Below are positions 2,910 through 59,600 of a stretch of 64,000 bases of DNA, piece by piece. Positions within the stretch are counted from its first letter, which is position 1; each line of letters begins with the position of its first letter. The stretch comes from Paraspadella gotoi (lineage: Eukaryota; Animalia; Chaetognatha). A program made the translations under genes and the position numbers. Where the stretch lies: NCBI GenBank assembly GCA_051294375.1, contig CM119267.1, positions 13,552,015 to 13,616,014 of the forward strand, written 5' to 3'. The notes below the pieces were generated by a model that was not told where the DNA came from, searched no databases, and saw only the letters and a program-made list of their open reading frames with translations.

Positions 2910-5900
2910 TTACTGATCACTACCATATCCAGATAAGGAAGTTAATCTTCTTTTTCGTGTTCTTGTTGTTAGCATGGGATTAATAAATGGTTCAAGATCT
3001 TTGTTTCCTTTATGAGGTTCAATGCCATCTATTTTAGGCTTCAACTGAGGCTCTGTTAACTTGTTAAATTTTAAGGATAAATCTGATTTAGGCTTAATTT
3101 GAATGCAACCGTTATATTTTTTAAAATGTCCAGTATTTTTTTCAGGCTTTGTTTATAGTTTTAAAAAGTTTAATTACGTGTGACAGTATTTTTTATGCAA
3201 TGTATTTTTTTTTTTCAAATTAAAACCTTAAAAATTTCTTGAGAGGTATTGATGACTTAAAAAATACATTCAGATTCGTCAGTAAAAAATCATAAAAGCA
3301 TAATATGTTTTAAAATTGGTACAACCAATATAAACTTATCCATTCCAGAGGAGGATTTAGCCTGCCATCCAATTCTCCTCTTCCTCTTCTTTCCTCCTCC
3401 TCCTTCTGCCCCTCAGTATATTTTGTCTAGCGATACATTCTCTCGTTTCTACTCTTCGCGAAATATACCATTATTTTCCCTCTATTTCTTCACGCCTTCA
3501 ATACCCCTCAAGCATTCATTTAATAAATTAGTTATCTTTCCCCCGACTTGGGACAGGCTTTGGTGATTTAAGGCCTCCATCACACTTACAAGATAATGAA
3601 TTAGAAGGTCCAGAGTACCTGGCTTTCCTCTTAATGAAGTAGTATATTTTCAAGAATGTTTCAATTGTAAAAAGGACAACCTCCCACAATGCTCAGAGGC
3701 ACGGATCATCTCACTGGCTTTAAGCTAAGAGCTTAGACATACATATTTTATCAAATATAAATCTTAATTATCCTTCATTTAAACACGATTCATGTTGAAA
3801 TCTGTCTACATACGCAAATGATATGTATAAGCACTTATACATTTAAAAATTTGTACCGCCAATCAGTTTGACGCAAATACTACCACAGTAACAGAAAACT
3901 ATAATCAAAGCCAAAATTTTCAACCTGAGAGTTTTTTACAACACTTTCTAAACCTCCAATGGATTCTTGAAGATTTTTACTATTTGAAGGTTGGTAAAAG
4001 TTATCCTTTAAGTTGTTTTTAGCATCTTTCTGGAACTTTTCCAAAGATAATTCGGTTTCCCCTTCAATAGAGCAATACAAAGTTGCTTCAAAATCATACT
4101 TCTCTTTTCCTTCCGACAATGATTCTGATTTCTCCTCAGTAATATTTTGATCACTTACATCAAATTTTAAATTATTAACTTTTCGCAAACAGCTAACACA
4201 AGATTTTTCAGGCTCAGCTTTAGAAATGATAGATATCTCTGAAAAGTTTGTAATATCAGCTTGGGATAGAGCTTGCTTGACAACAACCGAATTTTCCAGC
4301 GAAGCAATATTATTATGGCTTTTCCTAACTTTGTCGTCTTCAGATTCATCAGAGCTAACGCAAATAATTTCAATCGAAAGATTAGGACCTTCTTTAACGT
4401 TACTTTTTTTTAAAGTACCAACTATCTTTGCTGGAGCAACTTTATCGAAAACAATCGTGGATTTAACATTTGGCTCGGGGTCTTCCTCCATAAAAGCTCC
4501 CGGAGAAGACATTACTTTATAAATTTTTCCCTCAAAAGACGGTGATTTTAATAATGTTGGAGACAGAGGATCTTCTAAACGAGGAAGGTTGATTAAATTA
4601 GTGAAAGAACTCGAGGGCAATTCTAAATTACGCGTGAGTGAAGAACAAGGCATGGGCAAACTTGATAATAATGACCGATTAGGTGAATTCGGCAAAGATC
4701 TAAACGATCTATCTTTACTATTATTGGTTATGCTGCTACTTATGGTAGTATCTGAAAACCAATTTGAAGGTAAATGGTCCGTCTCATTTTTTTCCTGTTT
4801 AGCGTGGCTATCCAATGGTGGAAATGCGTTTTTATTTACGTGGACTGGGTTAATCCAAGAATTCTCTATATTCCCATTTTGCCGAATAGTGCTTGGTTCA
4901 CGCGAAAACTCAGTACCAAGACTGACTGTTCCTGACAAAGATTTGCTCCGATTGCAGCAAATGTTTTCATCTGAAAGAAAAATAAGAAAATAGTTACTAG
5001 TTACAATGCATTGCTCAAAAATAATACTTAGTAGTTACCGTTTGTTTTATTCAGCCCTGGTTTCGTCAGACTGGTGCAAACTTGAGAAATATCTGGTCCG
5101 CGAACAGTATTATTAAAATCAACGGTTGTGGCTTTAGTAGAACCAGCAGCATATCCTTCCTATCAGTTGAAGATTATTTCAACAACTTTTTAAAAATGAA
5201 TCAGTTATACACCACATAAAAATGTTAAACTGATTCATTTTATTACATTCTTTTGATTACATGGTATGTATGTACATTGTATGTATATTGTATAATGTTC
5301 TAAGTACCTAAAAATAATGAAGTAAAATGACGATATTTAGAAAAACCACTTTAGTTTTTAGAATAGAAATATATCTTTTCAGCTCGGGATAATGTTCGCT
5401 TTAATTCTAATTAGGTACAAATTTTTATATATCTATTCACCAGTTTCTCTGTCGACTAATTTGTATTAAATTTTAACAGTGAAATTGTGGCGAATCCTAA
5501 ATTCGCCTCCTGTATAGCTTGGTGAAACTCAGCTCGTCCCATTGGCTTGGACAGCTAAGTACTCATTCACCAACCGTGAGTTCCGGGTTCAATCCCCTCA
5601 CCGTCACGCTGGTTAAAGTGTGATGGTGTCGGCATAAACACGCCAGTGACATGTGGTGGTCACTGCAGGTCCAAAGCCCTGGGCGCCAGCTGTCGGGAGA
5701 TGCATCACACCCTGGGCATCACAAATGTCCCCTCGATGGCATAAAATTCAGAAAAAAAAAAAGATTCAGAGCTTAAAGCATTGAGATTCTAACCCATATA
5801 AAGACCTTATTCTTAGTCATTTTAAAATAACATAAGAGTGATGGAGGCCTTAAACCACCAAAGCCTGTCCAAAGTCAGGGGCAAGATAGCTTATTTATTA

Positions 5901-6777: not shown

Positions 6778-7083
6778 TTTCGACGGCTCATTCACTCATA
6801 ACTGTCACTTCAAGTTGATTTCGCTAAACAGGAAAGAACATTTGACATGACCAAATAAGTCAAAGAAAATAGAACTTAAACAAAAAACTATGAAATACCG
6901 TCAAAAGTTCAATTATAACATAATTGCTACCAGAACGTCTAACTAGATATGTATCCACGATTTAAATTTCAGACGTATCGTTACTATCAGGTCTTCAAAA
7001 TAATGAAAAGGGAAATAATTTAACAATAACTTGCCCCAGTAGACTAATAATGTAACAAACTGAGAAAAAGCTGTTCTCGACTC

Positions 7084-7260
7084 TCACTCGCGATAGTATC
7101 CACGACAGGGAATTAGCGGACGCATCGAAGGAGAGGAGTCGGGTGAGGTTCGACCAACGTTCAAGACCCGACGGTGGGATCCCCTGCCCAGCATCATGTA
7201 AGGATTTCTTTTTAACCACCGATCGAAGCATTCTTCAGATACGCAGGCTTCATCGTTCAT
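7084..7260 (-). CDS. Candidate 58-aa uORF or microprotein in a GC-rich upstream exon
   Basis: ATG at 7260, MNDEACVSEECFDRWLKRNPYMMLGRG...YYRE*. CpG-rich island with GTGAG donor-like site near its end. Cannot be joined in frame to the main ORF (in-frame stops after the acceptor at ~6824). Confidence 0.3.
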   Translation of the reverse strand: MNDEACVSEECFDRWLKRNPYMMLGRGSHRRVLNVGRTSPDSSPSMRPLIPCRGYYRE

Positions 7261-8127
7261 GCGACGATTCTCGTTCGGCTTAGACTGTTTCGTTTGAGGG
7301 ACGTCACACTCATAGTAAAGACAAGTCGACTGACGCTCATAGGGAGGAGAACGGTATTCTCTTGACAATTTAAGGAAATTGGAATGTCAAAATCAGAAGT
7401 TAATTTAATATAAATGAAAATATTTAAAAAGTTCAGTTCGCTTAATTTTAATTTCGTTGATTAGAATATTGGTACCTGAGTAAATCATGATATGATTGGT
7501 GATTTAGGAATTTTATCTTTTGTTTTATTTATTTTTAAGATTTTTTTTCGGGTAACTTTACCATTCAACGTCCGCAACCAACTTTAGCTACCACCGGTCG
7601 GTGCTTTGTTAATCCATTTAATTTTGTTTTCCCTATAATTTTATAATAAAAATAATTGTTTTAAATTTATTTTAATTGCTATTTTCATGTTTGAGTTAGA
7701 AAATGAATTGTTTGTTTACGTACGAGTTTTATTAACAAACAAATTTCAGCTTCAATATAAGCTTTAATCAGCGCAAAAACGAATTTATTTGTGAAACAAA
7801 TACTTTAACAGACTTTTTCTTTCTTCAAACTTCAAAGTCTGTGAAAATATTTCTTTCACAAATCAATTCGTTTTTGCGCTTATGAAAGTTTACATTTAAG
7901 CCGAAACATGTCCGATATTTATATTTTTTAATAAAACTCGTACATAAACAAACAAGGAAAGGAAAGAAAAAAAAAAAAATTTTATGTTATATTTTTTAAA
8001 CGGTTAGCTATTGGGTTATGGTCGGTTAGGGATTAGGGTTTGTTAGGGATTAGGGGTGGTTAGGGATTTGTAATAAAAAGTTTTTCTACCCTTACCAATG
8101 TCTTTTTTTATTTTTGAGTAGCGAGAT

Positions 8128-10599: not shown

Positions 10600-12830
10600 A
10601 ATCACTTAACCGTATAATCTTACCCGAACGCATTAATTAACCAATAGGGTCTAACCTCCGGCAGACTTATTAACCGTTTAAAAAAATCAAATTAATACAT
10701 TAGATATTAATTTGTTATATACGTGTTCCTTCTTAGTGGTATTGGTTTATGTCTGTGATATTTTCTAGTTTAAAAAATAATAACTATTCGACATGTTTCG
10801 GCTTAAATGTAAACTTTCATAAGCGCAAAAACGAATTGATTTGTGAAAGAAATATTTCACAGACTTTGAAGTTTGAAGAAAGAAAAGTCTGTTAAAGATT
10901 TTTGTCACAAATAATTCATGTTTTTGCCGCTGATTGAGCCTTATATTGAAGCATGAAATTTGTTTGTTAATAAAACTCGTACGTAAACAAACAATTCATT
11001 TTCTAACTCAAACATGAAAATAGCAATTAAATAAATTAAAACAATTATTTTTATTATAAAATTATAGGGAAAACAAAATTAAATGGATTAACAAAGCACC
11101 GACCGTGGTAGCTAAAAGTGGTTGCGGACGTTGAATGGTAAAGTTACCCGGAAAAAAAATCTTTAAAATAAATATAAACAAAGATAAAATTCCTAAATCA
11201 CCAATCATATCATGATTTACTCAGGGTACCAATATTCTAATCAACGAAATTAAAATTAAGCGAACTGAACTTTTTAAATATTTTCATTTATATTAAATTA
11301 ACTTCTGATTTTGACATTCCAATTTCCTTAAATTGTCAAGAGAATACCGTTCTCCTCCCTATGGAGCGTCAAGTCGACTTGTCTTTACATGAGATGTGGA
11401 CGTCCCTCAAACGAAACAGTCTAAGCCGAACGAGAATCGTCGCATGAACGATGAAAGCCTGCGTACTGAAGAATGCTTCGATCGGTGGGTTAAAAAGAAA
11501 TCCTTACATGATGCTGGGCAGGGGATCCCACCGTCGGGTCTTGAACGTTGTCGAACCTCCCGACTCCTCTCCTTCGATGCGTCGCGCTAATTCCCTGTCG
11601 TGGATACTATCGCGAGTGAGAGTCGAGAAACAGCTTTTTCTCAGTTTGTTACATTATTAGTCTACTGGGGCAAGTTATGTTTAAATTATTTCCCTTTTCA
11701 TTATTTTGAGACCTGATAGTAACGATACGTCGTGAATTTAAAATCGTGGATACATATCTAGTTAGACGTTTCTGGTAGCAATTATGTTATAATTGAACTT
11801 TTTGACGGTATTTCATAGTTTTTGTTTAAGTTCTATTTTCTTTGACTTATTTGTCATGTCAATGTTCTTTCCTGTTTAGCGAATCAACTTGAAGTGACAG
11901 TTATGAGTGGAATGAGCCGTCGAAAATGTCGACGCCTTCCACCCGGCCGAGAGTTAATTGTTGACCTGACAGAGACGAGTGACGCTGAAGAGGAAACCTA
12001 CGTCTGTCAGACGCTGTCATCGCGCACCCGTCTATCACAAGCTTTGAATGAGCGCATCAGCTGTGGTCCCGAAGTTCGTCCCCGTGACACCCTTCCGTCA
12101 ATCGTTTAACGTTTCAGACGTGATGCAGATCTTTTCGCAAGCGGTTGTTCAAGTTATCCTTCTTTCCATTCTTCTTCCCCTTATTCATCTTCTGGTTCCC
12201 CTTCTCCTACGGGCGGAATGGAGGTACACGCTTTTCCCGCAGGCCGTTACAAATATTACAATCAAGCGTCGACACAGACCCTGTCGTCTTTGGCTGGGGA
12301 TTATCTTGGCTGGGGATTACCTTGCAAGATGTTTGGAGCCTTTTCTGTTTCCCGCATGTCCAAGATTTATTCTCGAGCAAAAAAAGATATCAGTTTAAGG
12401 GCGTGGACGAGCTTATCCGATTTCAGTGCAGCGGGTTTTTTCACTAAATTCCGAATGGCGTTGGAAGTGGGGTTCGACTGGCATTCATTCTTTTCAGGCG
12501 CGCACAAGCGTCGGAAGGATATCAAGCTGGAGGAAAAATCGCCACACTAAACAGTCTAATGGAGGGAAATGTAATCGAACTCCATTGGCGCGCCTTTGAC
12601 AAATATCGATTTGATATGTTTATTCGGCTGTACACGCTCCCAGCTACACCTCAGGTTGAATATTCAACATAACTTCACCATTAGAAAATGTTTCTCTTCA
12701 TCAAGCTTTTACTTTAAACTTTACTGAGACAACATTTAGCTAAACAACATTTTAATTTAAATGGTTTATAATTTATATCTTTAATGAAACTTGGTTACAA
12801 ACAATATAAAATTATCCATTCATTAATTGT
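10600..12830 (+). other. Inverted, indel-rich duplicate of ~5895-8070 (5' part of the SIM-motif gene); probable assembly artefact or pseudogene
   Basis: Near-identical reverse complement with many 1-nt indels that fragment the ORFs (11894-12550); lies beside the 25-N gap. Confidence 0.85.
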
Positions 12831-20198: not shown

Positions 20199-20538
20199 CG
20201 TATATAAATAAAATCAATGAAAATATTTTTCAAAACTTTTAATTTTTTTTTTAGCTTCCATCAAGAAAGAACAAAAACCAAGATAATGAAATTATCAATA
20301 AAGATATATAATTTAAAGAATTGCTGAGTCAATAAATTTTGAGCAGAAATGAAGGTGGGTGGGCTGGGGGCATAAAGAAAGCCATTTTGCTGGTGGGTCC
20401 GGAGAAGAGCGGGAGTTTAACCTGGAGGTCTCTCTATACAAGCTTTCTCAGTGGAGGCGATTGGTGGGTCCGGAGAAGAGCGGGAGTTTAACCGGGAGGT
20501 CTCTATACAAGCTTTCTCAGTGCGGGAGGGGGGGATGC

Positions 20539-20745
20539 ATGGTGGACTAAAATCCACCAACCGTTCAGCGCGCCATTGGTGCCAGAGGCAAGTCATTCGC
20601 CTCCCAACCCAAAGGTCCAGGGTTCTAGCTCGGTGGTCGCAGTTAAGGGGCGGGGCGCTTAACCCGCCTGTAACACGGTGTTACAGCCTAATCAAGCTCA
20701 GGGACTGATTATATTGAATGGTTCGGTCACTAACAATAATAATTA
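20539..20745 (+). mobile_element. SINE family 2 copy with degenerate twister (20640-20707)
   Basis: Colinear with 21361-21570; retains the TCAGG half of P4 and a CAGT/ACTG P5. Confidence 0.7.
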
Positions 20746-20758
20746 CTGTTCTCTGTAT

Positions 20759-20845
20759 TGGTGAGCCCTTCTCGTGAACACACAACCTTTTCATTCTCAA
20801 CACCCACGGTGCGCTGCCCTTCTACCGACCAAGCGCCACGAGCTT
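20759..20845 (-). pseudogene. tRNA(Trp)-like decayed sequence ending GGGCTCACCA
   Basis: Reverse complement AGCTCGTGGCGC...GGTAG...GGGCTCACCA; acceptor halves pair and CCA is encoded. Confidence 0.4.
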
Positions 20846-21017
20846 CAATATCTACCCTTGCAACAGGCTCTTTCATCTACAAAGGATTAACACATATGCA
20901 GAATTTATCATAATTCGATGTTCTGAAATGATAATATGATTTACTAAAAGATTTATGGGTGGGACCGATGGACCGACAAAGTGGATTATAGAGTCAGAAT
21001 CTGCGATAAGCAGATCC

Positions 21018-21265
21018 TGTGGCAGTATATTCACACTGCCTCATGTCCATTATCGTTCATCCAATCTCATTGGCTCAGAGGGGGAACACACCATCCCAGG
21101 CATTGTTCCATCCTCAGTCCTAACGACTTCCCTCTGCGTTGGCAAAGCGAAACCATCCTAGTGTAACCGCGCCAGTGACTGGAGGCGTCACTGAGGAAGC
21201 CCCCAAAGCCCACAGTGAGTTGCCCCATCCCATTGGGCATGACAGGCAACCCGGCTGTTGCCATA
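21018..21265 (+). mobile_element. Solo LTR of the same family, with a twister motif deleted in loop L4
   Basis: TGTGGCA...TGCCATA, high similarity to 58101-58358; flanks ATCC/ATAC (4-bp TSD with one mismatch) inside a HINE terminus. Confidence 0.75.
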
Positions 21266-21360
21266 ATACAACTAAAAACTTGCTTGGATCAGAATTTTTT
21301 GACTTCACTACAAGAAAGTAAAAATATTATATTTTTCATTTTTTGTGCTTTAAAAATGGT

Positions 21361-21570
21361 ATGGTGGACTAAAATCCACCGTTCATCAGCGGCCATTGGT
21401 GCCAGAGGCAAGTCATTCGCCTCCCAACCCAAAGGTCCGGGGCTCTAGCCCGGTGGTCGCCTAGCAGTTAAGAGGGACGGGGCGCTTAACCCGCCTGTAA
21501 CATGGTGTTACAGCCTGATCCGAAGCTCATATTGAACGGTTCAGTCACTAACACATAACAATAATTACTT
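21361..21570 (+). mobile_element. tRNA(Gly)-like SINE family 2 with internal twister motif (21473-21529)
   Basis: 5' hairpin GGTGGA/TCCACC, A-box-like TGGTGCCAGAGG, CGCCTCCCAA anticodon arm, B-box-like motif. Twister AGG-GA-CG-G-GGCGCT-T^AA-CCC-GC-C-TGTAACA/TGTTACA-G-CCTGA-TCCGAA-GC-TCA. Confidence 0.7.
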
Positions 21571-23208
21571 TCTCTTCAATGGGTTATTTCTACTTTTTTT
21601 TACGGGGTGTCTAGGGAACAGTGGGCAATAGCCTGAATAAATACATGAAAATTTTTTTTCATGCTCCTAAGATATTATACTAATTAACAAATATAAAAGA
21701 AATATTCCTCTCAAATTTTTACACAATGAGTTTCAACCCAGGTCAGAGAAAGTAAAATTATGCCTTTTTTATATATTATTTAACCACATTAGTTTCGACG
21801 ACCTTTTCATTTTCCAAAAACTGAACCAGGCATTTACAAAATTAATAAAGTTAGGGCTAAAAAAGGTAAGGAAGTTAAAAAATGAAAGTGGTTTAGAGGT
21901 TAAGCGTCAAGGATATAAATACTATATTATAAATAGGGTTAGGGGTAAGTGTAGTTAAAGATCAAGTTTTCAAGAGTAGGTGTGGTTATGGGTTAAAAAA
22001 GAGGCGGCTGAGCAGTAGGTGAAAATAAATGTTCAACCATTATTTTGTAAAACAAATCGGGCGGATAAGCGGAAGAACCAGAGTTAGATACATGGGAGGA
22101 GAGAGAGAAGATACGGAAAAAAAGAAGGAAACAAGGTAATCGGAGAAAGTGAAGGGAATAATAGAGATTTAAAAACGAAAAGATTTTTAGGAATTTCTTT
22201 TCTTTGAGCTGAGATTCAATCATATTTAAATAAATAATAATAAATATAAAACAGTAAAAGAACTTATTTTCGAGTTTAATTTTTAGCAAGTGCAAAGTCT
22301 GGAGAGACATTATTGAAGGTACTTTTGTTTTACTTTTAGCCCGCATAAGCGAGCAGTTTGATCGAATGCGACCTCTCTAAACACTGTCAACATTCCCAGA
22401 CAAAAGACAAAGTGAAACTTGAATCAGACTGACAAAGTGAGGTAAAGACTAAAGTGAAGTAAAATGAAGTCAAGTAAAATAAAATAATAAAGTAAATATA
22501 TATTAAAAAAAAATTATTCTGATTGATATATTTAGAAAAAAAAATCCAAGAAAATCTCGGATGGCGATAATAAAAGTTTTTAGAGGGAAAAAAATAATCA
22601 GAGAGAGAGAGAGAGAGAGAGAGAAAGAAGCAAAATCGTTTTCAGCAGCAGAAGCACCCAGAAAAAAAGAAAGAAATCAAAAGTCAGCAGCAGCAGAAGA
22701 AGAAAAGAGAGAAAAAGAATACGCCCATTCAGAGCCAGCTGCAGAGAAAGAAATCAAAAGGCAGCAGCAGAAGCAGCAGGAGAAAAAAGAGAAAAAGAAT
22801 AAGCCCCTGCAGAGCCAGCTGCAGACTCGTTTTTTTCCCTTTCTGTATAATTTATACTATAAATCAGTGACTAGGGAAAAGAGAGAGGGAGAGAGAAAAG
22901 TAATTAAAAGAGAAAAGAGAGAGAGAAAGAAATAGAAAAATAAAAGAGAAAATTGGTTTGTTTTGATAAAACGTAAACAAAACATTTAATAACTGTCCAG
23001 ACTCAATTTTAAACACATCGATGATAAGAAGCTGTATATAAATTTTCAGCTTCATACACCCAAATTTAATCATAAAAAGGCGATCTATAATTTGGAACGC
23101 CGACAACGACGACGACTACGCCACTTATGCGCAAAAGTGTTACAATATCGTCGCAAACGCAAAGCGATTGCGACGATAAAAAAATGTTTTTTAAAATTGC
23201 AATATAAC

Positions 23209-35200: not shown

Positions 35201-37987
35201 TCACTTTAAATAACAAAATGTTATCAATCTATCTAAAGTTGTTTCATTACTTTCAGCCAATGCGAGAATTTAACATGTGTATATCTTAATCAACAAATTC
35301 CTCTTTTTCTCATTCTCATTTTTATTTCTCTCCTTCCAAAAACAGTTAAATTTTAGCTGGCTTGGTTGATTATGGCCTCCACTCAAATTTACAAAGAAAT
35401 AATGACATAGAAATGACATCGTAGCTCTCAATCACAACTTAAGCGATCACTTTAAACCAGAAACCTAAGCTTTTGTTTTCAAATGGTTTAACCACGTTCA
35501 TCCAGAGGACTCTCTCGATTGAAATCTTTTAAACTGTTTTTTTCCTGTTTGACTCNNNNNNNNNNNNNNNNNNNNNNNNNTTTAAAATTGTTTTTCTCTG
35601 TTTACTTTAATGATTGTTAAACTGAATGATTTTCAGTCTTGATTTGTCCTATATGTGAAATTAAATATTCTTATTCACTTTTACTACAGAAACGTTTTTA
35701 TTTCTTTATCCTCAATGTATGAGTTACATTATAAGAAGATGAAACAAAATAAGTGAATCGGATCAAGTATTGTTCTACATCAAAAATGTAAACAAATAAA
35801 CTATCAATTCTCTATCGATTCAAACTCAATCATTACAAATCAATGTAAATAAACTGAATCAAAACAATTCGATATTTAACGCCAAAGATTTTCCTGCAAC
35901 GTCGCCATGAAAGATACTTCAATATTTGCCAACGTCTTAGAACTCTAACGTTACAGTTTGCCACGGTACTTCGTCACGCTGTTGCTGGCCTCAGTCACCA
36001 GGCCACAAATCTAAATAACAATATGACAAATTCATTTTTATTTTTTTTATGAATGGGAAGTTTTCTCTGGCTTACTCCCTTGTGTCATAATTATTTAATA
36101 TTTTAGAGGTATTTCAAAACCTTATATAATTACTATATTTTACTTTTTTCAAATTCTTTCAAACAAAAATATCATAAAAACATTTTATAATAAAAAAATA
36201 AATTGATCGAATGATTTTGAAAAATATTGAAAACTTAAGAAATAATGGATTTCGAGTTAGGAAAAAAATTTTGCAATTTCTAAAAAAATCAGCCTCTAGC
36301 CTTTCGGATTTTTTAGAGGCTGATTTTTAAATTTTTTTGAATATTTTGATTTTCTATGCAAAACATTATTCTCAATGAGCATAGGTCGACGAACTTTTTT
36401 TTCAATAATTTGAAAAAATTTCAAACTTTTCTAATTAGGCTTTTTTGGGGAAATAAATAAATAAATTGTATAACAATGGGTACATCTAAAAGTGATATGT
36501 CTCTAAATGATAACAACATTTTCTTCAAGTTTTATTTTTTGAAATTCAAGTATTGTACCATAGAAAATATGTGAGATACACTTGCTTTGCCGAAATTTTT
36601 AGTTAAAGATTGTACTGCGTAGTTTTTACTTCCTATGATATCACACTTTTTTAAGAATCAATCGTAATTCGTAGTAGTTTTTATATAAAAAAGTGTTATA
36701 AATAAAATGAACAAATCCGAGTAATTGATATAAAACTTGTCAATTTATAAAGATTTGATGATGAGAACCAAATTTAATTTTTTAACTTCCTATATTTCTA
36801 ATTGTAGAAAAAACGACGACTACACAAAGAAGCCATTCTAAACAATAATCACGCCAAGATATTGTTATCCGCTTAAGCCCGTCTGGCGAGATAAAAAAAC
36901 ATGAACTCTTAGCATTAGGTTATATGGCCCCTTACAGAAAAAATCAAGGCCCTCTTAGAACCTGAATCGATTTTCAAATAGAAGAATGAATGATTATATG
37001 ATTAAAAATTCATTGCGTTTATTCTCTCTTTTCTTTGTTTGGTAATTAGACGAGAAAAATAGAATTCATAAAGCTGACAACATGTATAATAGGGTGGACT
37101 GATGAAAGATTGAGTGATTGAACCATTATTTTTTTGCTGCCTTTGGACATTGTAATTAAGAAATTTTAAATTCTTTTAAAATTTTGTTAGTAAACAGTAT
37201 AGTAAATTTCAGTTATTTATGTAATTAATATCCTTATTAACAATCGTTAATTCAAAAATATTTTATTTTATTTTTAAAAACAGATTTGGATTCGCCGTAA
37301 AAAAACTAAGAAACTTTTATAAAATATGTTATACGTGATATTCTAATGGTTTAGATTCAAAAAAAGATAAATACGTTTTTACATATATAAGTTTCTACTA
37401 CAAAGAATAAAAAAGCTTGAATTTTTACCTTTTTTCAAGTTTCAAACGCTGAAGATGACAGAATTTTTGATAACATGTTTTATATTATTTTGATTCAACT
37501 TTTTACGGAAGAATCTGAATCTTATTAAAAGTTAAAAAAAATTATTTTTAAAATTTACTTATTTTATAAGGATATTACTACGAAATAATTATATTTTACT
37601 ATTTCTGTTTCCCGAGACAATATGAACAAAATATTTTTTTGTACTACTTATATCATTCAAATATTTTTTTGTTCTTGAGTGCTCTTTAAAATAAATCGTT
37701 GTTGAATTGAAATATTTTTCTCGTCTGATTAAAAATTTCGCGACCACCCTTTTGGCGGTCTCGCTTTCATAATATCAATAGTACTTTACAATACAGTGCT
37801 ACAATATAATACATAAAATAATACAGGTCAAGATAGCTTATTGAATAAGATGATAATCTTTATACAACTATTGGTTTACCGCCAATTTATAGAAAGGCGT
37901 AATAGAAAAGCAAAGTTAGATAACATAATCGCACAAGGTTGTCTCAATAAAAAAAAACAAATTGACTGAATAGTGAATAGAATGTTA

Positions 37988-38241
37988 TTTATTTCTAGCT
38001 TAAACAACTTTCGTTTCTCGCACCGGTCTTAGTGATTTTCCGATGATGGCAAAGCGACCGACGTGACGTTCAAACCACTCCAGAGGAACTTCGTGAGTGG
38101 CATTAAAAGGACAAACCAAATAGGGGTTTCCCCGATTACTTCGACGGCACTTTAGCAGATGATAGGGAGTCGTTTCAAACGCACGCTGTGACATTCGGTT
38201 AAGGGCATTGAACCAAATTTTCGGGGATCAGAAAGGTTCAT
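37988..38241 (-). pseudogene. Frameshifted second copy of the GTSF1-like gene
   Basis: Near-identical to 44084-44338 with 1-nt indels; retains YHLLKCRRSNRGNPYLVCPFNATHEVP. Confidence 0.7.
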
Positions 38242-41200
38242 GGTTAATACTTTTTTTCCTCACCGATCCCTTTAAACGTTGTAAAGATAAAAAGTTCCAA
38301 CAACAGAAGTCAGTTATGTAAAACTGGACCTGTAGAATATAAAAAAAGTTGCACATGACTTTTTTTGATAAATAAATACTAAACAGACCAATTATATATC
38401 ACTAATCACAGTTCACAATATGGCAAAAAGATTCGTGTTGGCACGTATGACTTGAGTTAATCTCTAAGGTTTTGAATAAATAAATAATAAGTGAATGAGA
38501 CTTAAATTATGGCAATCGAGTAACGAGGAGTTCAACAATATCTTTTTATAGAACTAATTTTATAAATAAGGAGGTATAGATAAGTTAAAATCTGTAGTTA
38601 TCAAAAACCCTATATTGTAAAGAAACTATTCACGACAGTTAACATTACAATAATTCACAAGATAATAAATTTTTATTAATATTCATATTGAAGATCAGAA
38701 TAGCTTTTCAACTATTCACCAGAAGATCAATTATTTATTACAAAAGAAACATCGCTTTTCAGTCATAGAAAAGTAAAGCACATTTTAATGGTATTGTCGG
38801 GCAATCCTAAATTCCGCCTCCGTGTAAAGCTTGTGAAACCAGCTCCATGGCTTGACAGTAATAGCAGGTCATTTCGAGTACCTTTGTGATGAACACGGGC
38901 TAGGAAGAATAGAATTGTGGTGTCCATATATCAAATGGCTATGAGGATTTATCCACCTAAGGCGATAGATAGGCTGTGGCAAAAAATGGTAAAATATTAT
39001 ATTTAATAATTTTTGTTTGAAGTTGCACAGACGTTATCTTTCCACAAAAAACATTTATTACCTCAAAATTATATCATTTATTCATAATTATTGAGCTTCA
39101 TGAACACAGCAGTTAATAGTCAATTTGAAAAATTTTAAAATATAGAAGTAACGATAAAACCATCATCTCATTCTTCAACCATGCTTAATTATTGCAATTT
39201 GATCAATTTTATGTTCTAAAATGTAGTTTTTTTCTTATGTTTAAAACTGTCAATGACTACTAAAAAAATTTTTGAAAAATAAAAAAAAAATTTAAGCATT
39301 TTTTGACCCCCCAGGGGTCCACCCCCAGGGGCCCGTTTCTCTTTGTCAGGGGTTGAATATCAAAATTCGCCTCGATTAGTTCCATTTAGTTATGTCATTA
39401 GCACTCTAATGTAAAATTGTATTAAAATTCCATTGGCGTAGTTTGGTGCGGGAACAGTTTTTGGTCAGCATAAAAAGGCGGTACCAAACATTTTATAATA
39501 TGAAGCCTCTGTACTCGGTTTAAAACAACCGCGAGTTCCGGGTTCAATCCCCTTACTGGTCACGTTTGGTTAAAGTGTGGATTGGTCTGTCCGGGCATAA
39601 AACAGTCCAGTGAATGGGCCAGTGGTACACTTGCAGGTCCCAAGGCCATGAGGCCCCCAACCTGTCGGGAGATGCCTCCACACCCGGGACATCACACATG
39701 TCCCCGTGCCAAGTGTTAATTTTCACAGATCTTAGTTATGTTAACTTTTTTGCACTATTTAACGTTTAGAGGGACTGTATGATAATTTGATACAATGCGG
39801 CATTACAATTTTTAAATTTTATTATTTTACTTTTTGACCAAATATTATCAAAAATTTAAAAATAAATTAAATACTTTGTAGTGAACATTTACATTTTGCA
39901 TTTGCCTAAAAATCAATTATTTATAATATTTTTTTCGAATTCAAAGTTGTACCCCGGTTGAGCAAATCAGTGACACAAATAAGAAATTATTGCCAGTTTA
40001 CTGCATTGAAAATAAACGTAAACTTTTTTTTTTATTAGATAGAGAATGCTGAGACGTTTGTTCTGTTAAAATTTTAATTTAAATTGATATTTTTTAACAA
40101 CTAGAAATTATTAATTTTTTTGCAAGATGTCAAAGCTCGTCAAATATTGATGGCTCATCGCATTCTTTAATAATCAAACACAATGAATAACTTTTATTCA
40201 TATCAAGATCACAGTTAAATACTTTTCAGCCTTATTGACCTCTACAGAGGTCCGGAAGCAGTTCTGGTTGTATACGAAGATTCATTCTCATGCCTTGTGG
40301 CAAGCAATTTTAAGCAGCTTGGGACTGAACAACATTTAAAGCATCAAAATTGGGCTAAACATGATTGTTGATGATGCAGATATTGTTGCGCACTGAGCAT
40401 AATTGCCAAAAGTTTAAACAACATGGGAATTAGGACACATGAAAAAGGCGTAAACGTTACTGTTCCGTGCATAAAAAAAATTCACCTGTTACAATATTAT
40501 TATATTTCTTTTTATTTTTTTTAAACGTTATGTTTCATATTTTGCATATCCAAATATCAATGCAAAATTCTTTTTTTGTTTTTAGATATTGTGACTGATT
40601 ATAGGGTGAAAGATGATAATTTTTTTTTTAAAAAGTTACTTTATTCATATTTATTCATAGAATTGTTAATAGAAAAAAAAATAAAAAAAATAATAGCTTA
40701 CCAATATTAGTGGTTATGTCTCAAATAGAGAACGAAAAAAAACCTCATTTAAAAAATTCGATCGGGAATGGGCGTAACTAAGGCTTACCAATGGCATTCC
40801 TCACGCCGATTGTTCTCTCAAATAATTTTTTTATTAATACATTTGAAAGGGAAAAAAAGAAAATTTTGGGAATGCAGGGTTGCAGAAAAGGGTACAGATA
40901 ATTTGGACCTTATTGACCTGATAACCATGACCTTTTATATCTTGGAAATGGGGCAGTAATGAAATCTAAAAAATTTCATCATTTAAGTCAGGTCAATATT
41001 GAAACCCTTTCCAATGGGCTATTACGAGAAATATTTTTTCTTATTTAAAATGGATAGATAAATAATAGAATTAAATTCCTTGATGCTATATTTAAAAAAA
41101 AATTATCAATACAATTTTAACTCAATAATGTTTTTGCTTTGCTCACATATTGTTACCTGCTATATAATTTTTACAACTTTATTATTGATAAAACAAAGCA

Positions 41201-44083
41201 GATGGTCAAGCTTTAGTTTGCAGGTTAAAAGATAATGAAAAATGACGATTTTTTCTTCAGCAGGACAAGAAGGTAGATGTCCAGATGTTTATATCAAGCT
41301 GAAACAATTTTTGCTATTTATTATTTTTAATATTTTTAAAAATACATTTTATTCAAGCTATAACATAAATTTTTGCTTGTTTTTTACTAACTGAAAATAT
41401 AAGCCAATTATTATCGCAAATTAAAAAAAAAATTTCATAATAAACAAATATGTAATGCAGTTTTCCTTTTTTCAAATTATAAAAGAAAAAGAAAAAATCA
41501 TATGCTTTCATTGAAATTTTCTAAAGCAAAAAAACTGTTTGTCTATACTGTTGAATCTGATTTAAACAAAAGCTTGTGTAAAAGATTTATGGATTTAATT
41601 TAATTAAAACTGCCTTTTAGAAGGTGTCCCATGATTAGGGCCTTTTAATTTGATACCACAATCCTACCTTGCTACCTCTTTCTTTCAAAAAGTTATTTAA
41701 AAAAATAACTTTTTCTTTAATGATTGTTAACTGAATGATTTTCAGTCTTGATTTGTCCTATCTTGAAATTAAATATTCTTATTCACTTTTACTACAGAAA
41801 CGTTTTTATTTCTTTATCCTCAATGTATGAGTTACATTATAAGAAAGATGAAACAAAATAAGTGAATCGGATCCAAGTATGTTCTACATAAATAATGTAA
41901 ACAAATAAACTATCAATTCTCTATCGATTCAAAACTCAATTCTTTACAAATCAATGTAAATAAACTGAATCAAAAACAATTCGATATTTAACGCCAAAGA
42001 TTTTCCTGCAACGTCGCCATGAAAGATACTTCAATATTTGCCAACGTCTTAGAACTCTAACGTTACAGTTGCCACGGTACTTCGTCACGCTGTTGCTGGC
42101 CTCAGTCACCAGGCCACAAATCTAAATAACAATATGACAAATTCATTTTTTATTTTTTTTATGAATGGGAAGTTTTCTCTGGCTTACTCCCTTGTGTCAT
42201 AATTATTTAATATTTTAGAGGTATTTCAAAAACCTTATATAATTACTATATTTTACTTTTTTCAAATTCTTTCAAACAAAAATATCATAAAAACATTTTA
42301 ATAATAAAAAAAAAATTGATCGAATGATTTTGAAAAATATTGAAACTTAAGAATAATGGATTTCGAGTTAGGAAAAAAATTTTGCAATTTCTAAAAAAAT
42401 CAGCTCTAGCCTTTCGATTTTTTTAGAGGCTGATTTTTAAATTTTTTTAGATATTTTGATTTTCTATGCAAAACCATTATTCTCAATGAGCATAGGTCGA
42501 CGAACTTTTTTTTCAATAATTTGAAAAAAATTTCAAACTTTTCTAATTAGGCTTTTTTGGGGAAATAAATAAATAAATTGTATAACAATGGGTACATCTA
42601 AAAGTGATATGTCTCTAAATGATAAAACATTTTCTTCAAGTTTTATTTTGAAATTCAAGTATTGTACCAATAGAAATAGTGAGATACTACTGCTTTGCCG
42701 AAATTTTTAGTTAAAGATTTGTACTGCGTAGTTTTAACTTCCTATGATATCACACTTTTTTAAGAATCAATCGTAATTCGTAGTAGTTTTTATATAAAAA
42801 ATGTTTATAAATAAAATGAACAAATCCCGAGTATTGATATAAAACTTGTCAATTTAAAAGATCTTGATGATGAGAAACCAAATTTAATTTTTTAACTTCC
42901 TATATTTCTAATTGTAAGAAAAAACGACGACTACACAAAGAAGCCATTCTAAACAATAATCACGCCAAGATATTGTTATCACGATTAAGCCCGTCTGGCG
43001 AGATAAAAAACATGAACTCTTAGCATTAGGTTATATGGCCCCTTACAGAAAAAATCAAGGCCCTCTTAGAACCTGAATCGATTTTCAAATAGGAAGAATG
43101 AATGATTATATGATTAAAAATTCATTGCGTTCATTCTCTCTTTTCTTTGTTTGGTAATTAGACGAGAAAAATAGAATTCATAAAGCTGAAACATGTATAA
43201 TAGGGTGGACTGATGAAAAGATTGAGTGATTGAACATTATTTTTTTACTGCCTTTGGACATGTAATTAAGAAATTTTAAATTCTTTTAAAATTTTTGTTA
43301 GTTTAACAGTATAGTAAATTCAGTTATTTATGTAATAATATCCTTATAAAATCGTCAAATTTCAAAATATTTTTATTTTATTTTTAAAAACAGATTTGGA
43401 TTCGCCGTAAAAAACTAAGAAACTTTTATAAAATATGTTATATGATATTCTAATGTTTAGATTACAAAAAAAGATAAATACGTTTTAACATATATAAGTT
43501 TCTACTACAAAGAATAAAAAAGCTTGAATTTTTACCTTTTTTCAAGTTTCAAACGCTGAAGATGACAGAATTTTTGATAACATGTTTTATATTTTTGATT
43601 CAACTTTTTAGGAAGAATCTGAATCTTTATTAAAAGTTTAAAAAAAATTATTTTTAAAATTTACTATTTTATAAGGATATTACTACAAATATATTATATT
43701 TTACTATTCTGTTCCCGAGACAATATGAACAAAATATTTTTTGTACTACTTAATATCATTCAAATATTTTTTTTGTTCTTGAGTGCTCTTTAAAATAAAT
43801 CGTTGTTGAACTGAAATATTTTTCTCGTCTGATTAAAAATTTCGCGACCCCCTTTTGGCGGTCTCGCTTTCATAATATCAATAGTACTTTACAATACAGT
43901 GCTACATATAATACATAAATAATACAGGGTCAAGATAGCTTATTGAATAAAGAGATAACTTTATACACTATTGTTTACGCCAATTTTATAGAAAGGCGTA
44001 ATAGAAAAGCCAAGTTAAGATAACATAATCGCACAAGGTTGTCTCAAATAAAAAAATCAAATGACTGAATAGTGAATAGAATG

Positions 44084-44338
44084 TTAATTTATTTCTAGCT
44101 TAACAACTTTCGTTTCTCGCACCGGTTCTATGATTTTCCGATGATGGCAAGCGACGACGTGACGTTCAAACCACTCAGCAGGAACTTCGTGAGTGGCATT
44201 AAAAGGACAAACCAAATAGGGGTTTCCCCGATTACTTCGACGGCACTTTAGCAGATGATAGGGGAGTCGTTTCAAACGCACGCTGTGACATTCGTTATAA
44301 GGGCATTGAACCAAATTTTCGGGATCAGAAAGGTTCAT
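44084..44338 (-). CDS. GTSF1: Gametocyte-specific factor 1 / Asterix-like double CHHC zinc-finger protein (piRNA pathway cofactor family)
   Basis: Two C-x5-H-x9-H-x3-C fingers: CPYNECH..H..C and CPFNATH..H..C, preceded by DPENLVQ. May splice to an open 56-codon exon at ~42121-41950 (TTTAG|ATTTGT). Confidence 0.8.
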   Translation of the reverse strand: MNLSDPENLVQCPYNECHSVRLKRLPYHLLKCRRSNRGNPYLVCPFNATHEVPAEWFERHVVACHHRKIIEPVRETKVVKLEIN

Positions 44339-44950
44339 GGTTAACTTTTTTCCTCACCGATCCCTTTAAACGGTTGTAAGATAAAAAGTCCAACAAAGAA
44401 TCAGTTATGTAAAACTGGACCTGTAGAATATAAAAGAAAGTTGCACATACTTTTTTGATAAAATAAATACTAAACAGCAACAATACTTCTAATACACTAC
44501 TTCACAGTTCACAATTGGCAAAAAGATTCGTGTTGGCACGTGACTTGAGTCTAATCTCTAAGGTTTGAATAAATAAATAAATAAGTGAATGAGACTAAAT
44601 TATGGCAATCGAGTAACGAGGAGTTCAACAAATCTTTTTTAGAACAATTCATAAATAAGGAGGTATAAAGTTAAAATCTGTAGTTACAAAAAACCTATAT
44701 TGTAAAGAAACTCTTTCACAACAGTTAACATTACAATAATTCACAAGATAATAAATTTTTATTAATATTATATTGAAGCTCAGAATAGCTTTTAACTATT
44801 CACAGAAATCTATTATTTTTACAAAATAAACATCGCTTTCATCATAGAAAAGATAAAGCACCATTTTAAGGTATTGCGGCGAATCCTAAATTCGCCTCCC
44901 GTAAAGCTTGGTGAAACTCAGCTCATCCCATTGGCTTGGACAGCTAAATA

Positions 44951-45658
44951 GCGAAGGTTTCATATTATAAAATGTGGTACCCCTTTTTTGTGACCAGAAC
45001 ACGTTCCGAGAAAACTAAGGAATAGAATTTAATGAAATTTTGCATGCGGAGTACCAGTAGTGATACAAATGGAACTATCGAGGCGAATTTTTACATTCCA
45101 CCTCCAAGGCTGAGATAAGGGGCCCTGTGGGCAAAAAATGGTCAAAATATTTATAAATTTTTTTAATAATTTTTGTTTTGAACAGTTGCACAGACGTTTA
45201 CTCTTCCACAAAAACATTTATTACCTCAAAAATATTCATTTATCATAATTATTAGCTTCATGAACATCAGCAGTTAAAGTCAGATTTGAAATAATTTGGA
45301 AAAATTGGAAGTAAAACGATAAACCATGCATCTTCATTCTTCAACCATGCTTAATTATTGCAAATTTATCAATTTTAGTTCTAAAATGTTTTTTTCTTAT
45401 GTTTAAAACGTCAATGCTACTAAAAAAATTTGAAAAATAAAAAAAAATTGAAGCATTTTTTGACCCCCCAGGGGTCCACCCCCAGGGCCCTGTATCTCTT
45501 GTCAGGGGTTGAATATCAAAATTCGCCTCGATAGTTCCATTTATATAGTCATTAGCACTCTAAATGTAAAATTTCATTAAATTCGATTGGGTAGTTTGGT
45601 GGGAACAGATTTTGGTCACAAAAAAGGGGTACCACATTTTATAATATGAAGCCTTCTG
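44951..45658. mobile_element. Tc1/mariner-type MITE inserted at a TA inside SINE family 1
   Basis: ~45-bp TIR (CA)GAAGGCTTCATATTATAAAATGTGGTACCCC; the empty site AAGTACTC is seen at 5558. Confidence 0.8.
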
Positions 45659-45705
45659 TACTCGTTTAACAACCGCGAGTTCCGGGTTCAATCCCCTTAC
45701 GGTCA

Positions 45706-45792
45706 CGTTGGTTAAAGTGTGATGGTGTCGGCATAAACAGTCCAGTGATATGGGGTGGTCACTGCAGGTCCAAGGCCATGAGGCCCCCAACT
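45706..45792 (+). ncRNA. Degenerate twister in a SINE family 1 copy
   Basis: Same layout; P5 covaries to GTTGG/CCAAC; substitutions in P2/T2 and P4. Confidence 0.6.
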
Positions 45793-47050
45793 GTCGGGAG
45801 ATGCCTCACACCCAGGACATCACACATGTCCCCCGTTGCCATAGTTTAATCTTTTCAAGATCTTAGTTATGATTAACTTTTTTGCACAAATTTTAACGTT
45901 TAGAGGGACTGCTATGATAATTTGATAATGGATTACAATTTTTAAATTTTATTATTTTATTTTTGACCAAATATTATCAAAAATTTAAAAATAAATTAAT
46001 ACTTTGTATGAACATTTACATTTTTATCATTGCTAAAAATCAATTATTTATAAATATTTTTTTCGAATTCAAAGTTGTACCCCATGAGCCAAATCCAGTG
46101 ACACAAAAGAAATTATTGCCAGTTTACTGCATTGAAATAAACGTAAACTTTTTTTTATTAGATAGAGAATGCTTGACGTTTTTTCTGTTAAAATTTTATT
46201 TAAATTGATATTTTTTAACAACTAGAAATTATTAATTTTTTTTGCAAAGATGTCAAAGCCGTCAAATTGATGGCTCATCGCATCTTTTAATAATCAAACA
46301 CAATGAATAACTTTTAATTCAATATCCAAGATTACAGTATAAATATTTTCAGCCTTATTGACCTCTACAAGGTCCAGAAGGGCAGTTGGTTTATACGAGA
46401 TTCATTCTCAGGCCTTTGGGCAAGCAATTTAAGCAGCTTGACTGAACAACATTAAAGCATCAAAATTGGGCTAAAATGATTGTTGAGATGCAGATATGTG
46501 CGCACTGAGCATAATTGCAAAGTTAAACATGGGAATATATGAAAAGCAGCTGTGGCTAACAGTATGATTTGTTTTCTTTTTAAAACATGGGTAGTTTCAA
46601 AAAAAATATAGTAACCAATACAATACACCAACTGTATCAATTTTTTTTAACAAAAGAACTCTCTCTCCCTCTCACACATTTCTTGTAAAGTGAAAATTGC
46701 TTATTTTTCACAAGTGATGAAGTCTTGAAACAAGTCGAAACACTGTTTTTCTAAAAATAAAATCGTTGTTTGTTCAAACTAAAACTTTTTCGAACAAAAG
46801 AACTAAAGTAAATCAGAGGGGAGTAATGCAGTTGTTCTGAAGTTCCAACTTATCACATATCATTTTTTTTTTAAAGTAATTTGTCACTAAAGAAGTCTTG
46901 CAAAAAGACTGACTGTGTAAGAAACCGATGAAAAGATGAAAAGATTGTTCCACACAAGTTCGGGAGGCATTTTAAGCATTTTTATACCCATTTTAATAAA
47001 TATTTTGGTCATTTCAAAAACGTCAATAATTTTTCTATCAAATGGTATAA

Positions 47051-56600: not shown

Positions 56601-59600
56601 TTTTTGCTAAGGTGGGACGGACGGGGTACGGACGGACATTTTTTTGCATAATTTATCATAATTCGATGTTCTGACATGATATAAGTGTGTGCCCGACAAT
56701 ATTGAGGGGGCGGACCGACGGACCGACAAAGTGAATTATAGAGTCGGGATCTGCTGATAAGCAGATCGACTAAAAAGCGTGAAGCCGACGCACTGTCACG
56801 AAGCTCACCCGAAACAATATCGAGCCTGGACCGGCTTCGCCGGCAGTCTTGATAAAAATTGTTTTGTAAATGAAACAAACAAATGAGTGTAGGAATATGA
56901 AACATAATTTAAATGTTAAAACATTGTGACGACGACAACGGTCAAAAGAAGCAGAAACGAATTAACATCTCGCCCAAGTCGGACATTCGCCCGTCTGGAG
57001 AGATATTAACGAAAAGTAACTCGCGGCGAACTAAGTTTCAAACAAGAAAATACCCGTGGTGCACTTCGTGAGTGGCGTTGGGCGTAAGTCCCGCCAAGCG
57101 TTGGGCTATATCGAAACCGAGAAGATCCGCGGGTGGGGCCGTTTTAGGTGCGCCCTCTTTCGGCTGTTCGTACCCCACAACAGGAGACATGGGCGGCGAT
57201 ATTAAAAACTGCTTCTCTAAGGGAGGAGGTTTCAGAAACTGTTCCGCCTTTTCGCTCAGTTTCTATAAGCAAAAACAGTAAGTTAAAACTGCTTAATTTA
57301 CAACTTCCCATTGCTGTATAATTATAATTTATTAATATTGCGATATTGAAGTGACCGACAGGACAGGGGGTTCTCCGTGTCCCTCTGACGGATAGCCTCA
57401 GATTTTCCCGTCAATTGCCTTGGTTTCCGGAACTTCGGATTTGGCTTGCTACCGTGGGTTAAACCGGCCCGTCACTTTTGCAAGGACAAAGGGCTAGAAC
57501 CGTGAATCAAGGAGTTCGGTTTGGAACAGTCTCATCAAACGAAGTAGTAGTGACTCACTACAATATACAGAAGGCTTCATATTATAAAATGTGTGTAACA
57601 TTGGTTCGGTATTATTTCCACCGCCGCTCAGTCTGTCCATCCATTTTTTTCCGTTCGCGCCAAATCAATTGGCTCAGAGGGGGAAAACACCATCCCAGGC
57701 GTAGTGTTATATCCACAGTTCTAACGACTTCCCTCTGCGTTGGCAAAGCGAGACCTTCCTAGGGTAACCGCGCCAGTGACTGGAGGCGTCACTGAGGGTC
57801 GGAAGCCCCCAAAGCAACAGTGAGATGCCCCATCCCAATGGGCACACAGAGCAACCCGGCTGTTGCCATAAGTGGTGAGCCCTACTATCGAACATGCACC
57901 TTATCAGGGTACGCTACGACAAACGCCTATGCCCTGCCAACTTCGGGTATGCTACGACAAACGCCTATGCCCCTGGGGTACGCTACGACAAACGCCTATG
58001 CCCCACAACTCGCTCTCTCTCTCCTCTCCCACTATGGTAGCAGTCTTGTCAGACACCTTTCAGGCTTGAGGAACCCGAGTGAGGTCTTGCCCGGAGATCC
58101 TGTGGCGGTATATTCCCACCCCTCCTCACGCCACCATCCGTCAGCCAAATCAATTGGCTCAGAGGGGGAACACACCATCCCAGGCGTAGTGTTCCATCCA
58201 CAGTCCTAACGACTTCCCTCTGCAGTTGGCAAAGCGAGGCCGTCCTAGGGTAACGCGCGCCAGTGACTGGAGGCGTCACTGAGGGTCGGAAGCCCCCAAA
58301 GCCAACAGTGAGATGCCCCATCTCAATGGGCATCACAGGCAACCCGGCTGTTGCCATAGTACCCCTTTTTTGTGACCAGAACACGTTCCGAGAAAACTTC
58401 TGGACCAAATTATTGAAATTTGGAAAATGAACGACCCCTATGTGAATACAAATAGAAATATCAAGGCGAAGTTCAATAATTGACCACTGAGCCGAGATAT
58501 GGGCCCTCTGGGGGGTCACCCATTGGGGCAAAAAATGGTCAAAGATTTTTTACAAATTTTTCAAATATTTTTTTCTTGAACAGTTGCACAGACGTTTACT
58601 CTTCCACAAAAACCTATTTATTACCTCAAAAATGTTAATTTACCTTAATTTTTAGCTTCATGAACATCAGCTGTTCAAGTCAGATTTGGAATAATTTTAG
58701 AAAATTGGAAGTAAAACGATGAACCATGCATCTTCTAACAATGCTTAATTATTGAAAATTTGTCAATTTTAGTTCTAAAATGTTTTTTTTATATGTTTAA
58801 GACGTCAATGCACCTGATGCTACTAAAAAATATTAAAATAAAAAAATAAAAATTTTTAGCCTTTTTTGGCCCCCCAGGGGTCTAGCCCCAGGACCCTGTA
58901 TCTCTTGTCAGGGGTTGAATATCAAAATTCGCCTCGATAGTTCCATTTATATTGTCATTAGGACTGTATATGTAAAATTTCATAAAATTCGATCGAGTAC
59001 TTAGGTTCTGGTCACAAAAAAGGGGTACCACATTTTATAATATGAAGCCTTCTGTACTTATTTTGTATGTTAAAAAATATTAAAAAACATTACCGCATTT
59101 TCAAACTGTTTGAATGTTCACTGTTGTTCAGATAGTACCTGAGCGAAGTAGCATCTTAGCTTTTCGCCCTCGAGCTCCAGGCCGTCGAACTTGTCTCTAG
59201 CGGTGGAGGCTTTCCCACGGGAGCTAAAATCTACGCGGGCACGCCGGAACGACTTGAGATATATAAAGTGAGCATCGCCGTCCAGTTCGAGAAACATGGA
59301 TTCCAGTTGGCGTTTTTTTTCTATGTCCCTGAATGTACATGGTATATTTGAAACCCGCCGCTAGAAAAAATTCACCAAACGAAAACGTGAAAAAGATTAA
59401 CATTTTGAAAATAAATACACAAGATATACTCATTTTTTAGGTATAGATATCAGTTCTTTCGGTTTACTTCTACTTTAACAGGAAGAGGTATAAGAAAGCT
59501 TAGAAAATGATCTCGCTGCTCTATAGACTAATATTTTTTAATAAAAAAAATTTGTTTTACTTTCTGGACGATTTATAAAAAAATCTTTCAAAAAATAACA

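Follow-up and report, generated by a model that had tools for sequence, protein, structure and literature searches.

The 64-kb window analysed here, the whole stretch of DNA under study, carries two recognisable exons among several kinds of repeat. An exon on the reverse strand (44087-44353), which presumably resembles GTSF1/Asterix, encodes two U11-48K CHHC zinc fingers (Pfam E-value of 3e-15); most clusters similar to the zinc finger come from arthropods and chordates, which does not amount to a taxonomic test. A calcipressin (RCAN) exon, with relatives at 64-73% identity, lies on the reverse strand at 59121-59360, ~760 bp from a non-coding LTR element at 57594-58358. This element (family 1) possesses 258-bp LTRs with TGT...ATA ends, a PBS, a probable 4-bp TSD and a putative twister ribozyme in each LTR. 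It is inserted into a copy of a MITE-like element of ~700 bp with 150-bp inverted arms, another copy of which (44949-45659) splits an LTR of another family (family 3). With its calcipressin and zinc-finger exons the host is a eukaryote, and very probably an animal. The features of family 1 are as follows.

57594..57870 (+): 5' LTR, of which 57594-57658 is probably a noisy rendering of the TSD plus the LTR start
57736..57822 (+): putative P5-permuted twister fold of the left LTR, from pairing analysis, with a weak Rfam twister-P1 match; P2' 57748-51, conserved GA 57752-53, T1 57754-56, palindromic P1 57757-64, predicted cut site U^A 57765/6, L4 57799-57806
57871..58100 (+): internal part without coding sequence, holding a CT run and three 28-mers (at 57907, 57945 and 57976) and lacking a PPT
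57873..57882 (+): PBS TGGTGAGCCC of CsRn1 type; tRNA-Trp assigned according to PMC2582038 and an alignment in the supplement of PMC10886601
58101..58358 (+): 3' LTR, 258 bp
58221-58310, within the 3' LTR: second putative twister fold, U^A 58251/2, with changes private to the window copy
58359..58362 (+): GTAC, right-hand copy of the target site, whose left-hand counterpart is found in contig joints of sequencing runs X2 and X9
21018..21265 (+): solo LTR, with a TSD matching at 3 of 4 positions and a damaged twister

An initial annotation had delimited the element at exactly these ends. At three places in the window (45660 and 59056, both reverse-complemented, and 44953) the host repeat occurs empty, with the positions corresponding to 57593 and 58359 directly joined, so the outer limits are exact. 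The two LTR-like repeats, annotated as ~260 bp long, are real: the direct repeats 57659-57870 and 58144-58358 share 94% identity across 216 bp, and the right LTR leaves an internal region of 230 bp. The proposed PBS-like sequence matches the PBS of the CsRn1 clade. None of the three frames overlapping the element has a Pfam match (70 of the 101 frames in the window were scanned), in agreement with the annotated non-coding nature, and a coding element was rejected on this ground; a tRNA gene was likewise rejected, as ARAGORN finds none. No T4 run occurs within 57660-58358. The absence of a clear PPT is borne out, with purines at only 6 of the 15 positions before 58101. The three internal 28-mers are present, and two of them folded in register give a weak hairpin of -5.4 kcal/mol.

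Depth and contig joints were taken from four public sequencing runs (X1, X2, X5 and X9) of one organism; runs with small shares (two other organisms and a biofilm) were left aside. Summed depth in the LTR bin reaches ~1e6 in X1 and X2 (X1 ~1.3e6), compared to 110-198 in the left flank (X1 110), a figure that is not a copy number; family 1 is a very highly repeated family. In X9, presumed to be an RNA run, the host MITE is covered about as deeply as the LTR, as it is in the DNA runs, and this run is not taken as evidence of expression. Contigs leave the alignment at 58358 and run into unrelated sequence in three runs (136 in X1, 127 in X2 and 104 in X5, with an agreement of 0.43-0.45), which fixes the 3' end of the family. 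At the other end, the initial annotation had reported the lack of a TSD and differing LTR 5' ends, both of which are probably artefacts of the assembled sequence. In two of the four runs (X2 and X9) a contig links 57593 with 58100 across three intervening letters, reading as flank, GTAC and LTR start; the joint is short, with a side of 20-21 letters, and may stem from another copy of the host repeat. Together with the GTAC at 58359-58362, this joint indicates that the insertion probably has the 4-bp TSD GTAC. The odd left end of the window copy is probably assembly noise, because 57594-57658 aligns to the expected TSD and LTR start mostly via insertions, and because near-duplicates elsewhere in the window (36.4-39.8 kb versus 42.5-45.9 kb) differ by 184 gap openings against 90 mismatches. 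This indel-dominated duplicate of ~3.4 kb (36400-39800 and 42500-45950) is itself probably due to a long-read copy that entered the assembly unpolished.

The solo LTR at 21018-21265 is a copy of the family-1 LTR with 86% identity. Its annotated 4-bp TSD-like flank stands in that four extra bases are missing from empty host copies; the match between the flanks (ATAC versus ATCC) extends to three of four positions. The hexamer AGATCC precedes this solo LTR in the host repeat (21012-21017) and the right LTR in the internal sequence (58095-58100). Among four insertions examined in the window, one has a perfect TSD (5486), one has its TSD through contig joints (57594) and two match at three of four positions. 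A tyrosine-recombinase or Helitron-type insertion without TSD was rejected in view of these TSDs.

By sequence and predicted pairing, the window carries two further homologous LTR families with a P5-permuted twister fold, both overlooked in the initial annotation and represented by the following copies.

5486..5743 (+): family 3 solo LTR, 258 bp, TGT...ATA, with perfect 4-bp TSD AAAT and a complete twister fold (GA 5622, U^A 5635/6, T1 UGG/CCA); box B at 5586
44875..45843 (+): family 3 solo LTR split by the MITE, TSD 3 of 4, with a noisy duplicate at ~38.8-39.7 kb
20535..20768 (+): LTR-like repeat of family 2 with approximate ends and a degenerate twister; a purine run precedes it and the same PBS as in family 1 follows at 20759
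21357..21590 (+): second LTR-like repeat of family 2, likewise with approximate ends, bearing a twister fold (T1 CGG/CCG, P1 palindrome 21481-21486, P2 pairs 2 of 3)

The three families are homologous along their whole length, and ATTGG occurs at the same place in each. Families 1 and 3 agree in LTR length and in the position of the cut site, 150-151 nt from the LTR start. The PBS of family 2 is the same as that of family 1, and its twister fold is more worn. At 20390-20768, a purine run lies upstream of the family-2 repeat, the PBS downstream and two ~63-bp repeats further upstream; judged from this arrangement, the repeat may be an LTR shared within a tandem copy.

Pairing analysis of the family-1 twister gave T1 (CC/GG), T2, a P3 of 7 bp and a P4 of 3 bp, in addition to a P5 duplex of -14.5 kcal/mol (-12.1 kcal/mol in family 3, weak in family 2). 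These pairings are as first described, with a C-A opposition besides at the first P2 pair, adjoining the cut site. Among the 40 listed of 67 variant rows, none gives a majority variant at this opposition, which seems to be family-wide. P2 and P4 are both complete in family 3 (4 of 4 pairs each), compared to 3 of 4 P2 pairs in family 1. The UAA cut loop and the G and A of the opposite strand are present in the left LTR, family 3 and the second family-2 repeat; conserved twister positions are named here by comparison with the Rfam consensus lines only. The sequencing runs show that the deviation of the right LTR from the twister core is private to that copy. At 57756 and 58239, where the window copies break the model, ~98% of X1 depth carries the fitting letter. 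In the solo LTR at 21018-21265 the conserved G is missing and a 5-nt deletion is present.

Comparison of the families revealed that T1 reads CC/GG in family 1, UG/CA in family 3 and CG/CG in family 2, paired in all three, and that T2 is also paired. Compensatory changes between the families occur in T1, P2, P4 and P1. In families 1 and 3 (5 copies), 90.5% of cells pair, compared to 32-43% in slid controls, and 6 of 24 pairs differ on both sides; this count rests on two independent families, with a structure drawn from the same sequences and a shuffle control that ignores relatedness. MAFFT misaligned the fourth twister type (below) and part of family 2, and the four of nine rows left out of the count were scored by anchors instead. 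A strict descriptor with free T1 pairs has four matches in the window, compared to one low-score match in 30 shuffles; three of the four were known when the descriptor was written, and the top match (family 3) was new. A loosened version is unspecific at score 7 (6 matches in the window versus 28 in 20 shuffles). The descriptor pattern had no match in a scan of viral contigs, and the one match in a metagenome scan, which falls within coding sequence of a bacterium, was put down to chance.

Rfam searches of family 1 gave no Twister-P5 match and no hammerhead match, only twister-P1 (17.7 bits, E-value of 0.79), which has the wrong permutation. Family 3 matches Twister-P5 with 22.2 bits (E-value of 0.019 in 441 bases), compared to a gathering score of 37.6 bits, and family 2 has no twister match. 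The initial annotation had staked its reading of a twister-bearing LTR retrozyme on a covariance-model hit or covariation, and on paired LTRs and TSDs. No Rfam model reaches its threshold, while covariation, paired LTRs and TSDs are all present, and at the DNA level the interpretation as a twister LTR retrozyme is supported. A fourth, compact twister type without P3 lies outside the recognised LTRs, at 5837-5879 on the forward strand and ~3535-3588 on the reverse strand. It matches Rfam Twister-P5 with 25.8 bits (E-value of 0.0022 in 441 bases) and has an AC/GU T2 and a perfect 6-nt P1 palindrome; its two copies share only ~76 bp, and it may belong to the tail of some other retroelement.

The CsRn1 clade of Ty3/gypsy elements has a 4-bp TSD, TGT...ATA or TGT...AAA ends and the PBS TGGTGA(G/C)CCC, complementary to tRNA-Trp (PMC2582038). 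LTR ends, PBS and TSD length of family 1 match this clade in all three signals, its TGT...ATA ends, PBS TGGTGAGCCC and TSD length being common to PwRn1 and AgCR. Unlike these elements, it has neither gag-pol nor a PPT, and no ribozyme is mentioned for CsRn1 in the passages of PMC2582038 consulted. Judging by these sequence signals, the CsRn1 clade is likely the helper of family 1, a candidate helper rather than the family to which the element itself belongs.

The closest known architecture is that of the plant LTR retrozymes (Cervera, Urbina and de la Peña 2016, PMC4918200), which likewise have two ribozyme-bearing LTRs, a non-coding centre, a PBS, a 4-bp TSD, solo LTRs and Ty3/gypsy signals. 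Family 1 differs from them in carrying a twister and a Trp-type PBS instead of a type III hammerhead and a Met PBS, in a unit of ~485 nt compared to ~700 nt, and in its likely animal host, TGT...ATA ends, palindromic P1 and missing PPT. As regards membership of the LTR retrozymes, the two LTRs, non-coding centre, PBS and TSD are in place, whereas the ribozyme class and the PPT depart from them.

The observed anatomy, repetition, precise ends, TSDs and covarying fold, drawn from a window with one complete two-LTR copy, lead us to consider the following model probable. Family 1 is a non-coding, highly repeated LTR retroelement with CsRn1-type ends, PBS and 4-bp TSD, each LTR of which bears a twister fold predicted to self-cleave, likely paired through its palindromic P1, to release a unit of ~485 nt that would be circularised and copied by a Ty3/gypsy helper. 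The two predicted U^A sites are indeed 486 nt apart, as annotated. Transcription, from a start within the 5' LTR or upstream of it, would pass through both twisters; the two palindromic P1 segments would then pair into a double twister with swapped strands, and cleavage would follow at both U^A sites. The resulting unit, with a 5'-OH and a 2',3'-cyclic phosphate, could be closed by a host RtcB-type ligase. RtcB ligates hammerhead retrozymes in vitro, and engineered tandem twisters make circles in mammalian cells (PMC7229834). The circle would contain one twister with a P1 of 1-2 bp and would seldom be cut again; as a monomer it has a modest predicted fold (57% paired, z of -1.8 versus shuffles). 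A tRNA-Trp would then prime reverse transcription 107 nt from the junction, with the circle standing in for the terminal redundancy lost by cleavage, and a CsRn1-clade integrase would insert the DNA with a 4-bp TSD. For an element without PPT, this cycle leaves second-strand priming unexplained.

The strongest alternative, which we nevertheless regard as unlikely, is that active twisters reside in an otherwise ordinary TRIM, Helenus-like and perhaps transcribed by Pol III, whose replication proceeds from linear RNA left uncut; cleavage would then trim read-through or limit expression, and circles would be by-products. Animal Helenus TRIMs (TRIMp3; Kojima 2024, PMC10886601), which are shorter than 1 kb, have 4-bp TSDs, Gypsy-type PBSs including Trp and many solo LTRs, and family 3 resembles them further in keeping a perfect box B; 4 of 500 shuffles attain its best box A+B score. 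The corresponding score lacks significance in families 1 and 2 (32-403 of 500 shuffles), on which ground clear Helenus membership was rejected, and family 1 also lacks a PPT. No ribozyme is described for Helenus in the parts of PMC10886601 consulted, where the word "twister" does not occur, and its supplement has no occurrence of the four L4 motifs or of this PBS variant, in a text whose line breaks can hide matches. The fold itself weighs against replication from linear RNA. Linear strand transfer of LTR elements needs the R overlap; cleavage in both LTRs removes this overlap and would put an efficient twister at a selective disadvantage, in spite of which the fold shows covariation among the three families.

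The same covariation bears on a second possibility, that the family-1 twister was captured (for example from a Penelope/Naiad tail), has since become inactive and is kept as a relic by descent only. The C-A opposition in P2, the sub-threshold Rfam scores and the damage to several window copies are in its favour. However, compensatory changes in T1, P2, P4 and P1 between LTR families that are homologous over their whole length imply that selection acted after capture, and the majority letters in family 1 fit the model, which makes the relic explanation improbable in our assessment. Least plausible, and in our judgement very unlikely, is that the repeats are Penelope-like pseudo-LTRs of a non-LTR retrozyme inserted by target-primed reverse transcription, with the LTR signals coincidental: animal retrozymes described so far are PLE-derived (10.64898/2026.07.22.740005) and the 6-bp AGATCC before the right LTR and the solo copy could be microhomology, but against it stand LTRs of 258 bp that start with TGT and end with ATA as fixed termini in two families, the 4-bp TSDs, and a PBS located 2 nt past the LTR in family 1 and past a family-2 repeat, all of which match CsRn1. 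Metazoan retrozymes of the non-LTR kind, whose type I hammerheads act as dimers (PMC7229834), resemble family 1 as modelled here in combining a weak helix with a palindromic loop, dimer action and a small circular RNA; unlike it, they are PLE-derived tandem arrays with hammerheads and without LTRs or PBS. The tandem units without LTR or PBS that mark the non-LTR retrozyme or PLE class do not apply here, LTR ends, PBS and 4-bp TSD being present.

The predicted cleavage of the retroelement RNA as a pair draws on the P1 segment, which lies between T1 and UAA. It is fully self-complementary in all four twister types of the window, including the inner P1 pairs, which cannot form in a hairpin; the initial annotation had overlooked this palindrome. 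As a hairpin, P1 would have only 1-2 bp, at +2.7 to +5.6 kcal/mol compared to -8.3 to -11.0 kcal/mol for the duplex. The background rate of such palindromes in the LTRs, given the outer pairs, is 14 of 81 8-mers and 37 of 254 6-mers, so that the joint chance is ~6e-4 if independence is assumed. The innermost P1 pair is U-A in one and C-G in the other of families 1 and 3. In a pseudoknot-free ensemble, P1 pairing between the LTRs reaches only ~0.15, and the hairpin at most 0.001. Because P1 is palindromic, including inner pairs impossible in a hairpin, a double twister may be what cuts two-LTR RNA, which suggests that cleavage would act on both LTR copies together and leave the one-twister circle uncut. 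A precedent is provided by amphibian hammerheads whose loops are palindromic, as their cleavage is efficient in the dimeric state only (PMC7229834). A dimer is not a requirement, since even in the absence of P1 twisters retain inefficient cleavage (PMC8501958). A bolder version, which we put forward tentatively and would rate somewhat below even, is that these families are an old, diversified lineage of animal LTR retrozymes parasitic on CsRn1, in which an obligate strand-swapped double twister acts as a counter that cuts only two-LTR RNA, giving a self-protected circle that replicates without R overlap or PPT. If so, this counter would represent a naturally occurring dimeric twister and the equivalent in nature of the tandem-twister systems engineered to make circular RNA.

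Compared to the type-P5 twister (Rfam RF02684) and the Schistosoma T-variants (PMC8501958), the window twisters share the UAA cut loop, GA, T1, T2, L4 and P5 permutation, as well as the link to retrotransposition. They differ in switched T1 pairs, the presence of P3 and a palindromic P1 of 6-8 nt, in scoring below the Rfam gathering score, and in lying inside LTRs rather than at a LINE 5' end. Twisters are tied in the literature to a Schistosoma non-LTR element and viroid-like circles; a 2020 review describes metazoan retrozymes as lacking LTRs, PBS and PPT; and LTR retrozymes are placed primarily in plants, with type III hammerheads (preprint 10.64898/2026.07.22.740005). Literature searches, in which these and further related papers (PMC7761336, PMC6765202, PMC10085705, PMC12471100 and 10.1101/2022.07.19.500677) were consulted, turned up neither an LTR element with a twister nor a twister acting as a dimer; they extended to few subscription papers, so a prior description is possible. 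If the twister LTR version stands in an animal, the circle-forming retroelement design would have an independent origin with another ribozyme class, and twisters would gain a second biological role beside LINE 5'-end processing. It would also name a testable helper clade, where plant retrozymes have a helper in general terms only, and the palindromic P1 predicts a dimer mechanism. Elsewhere in the window, the long, nearly perfect inverted repeats at 6483-7748 and 10954-12221 are probably a foldback element or a DNA transposon.
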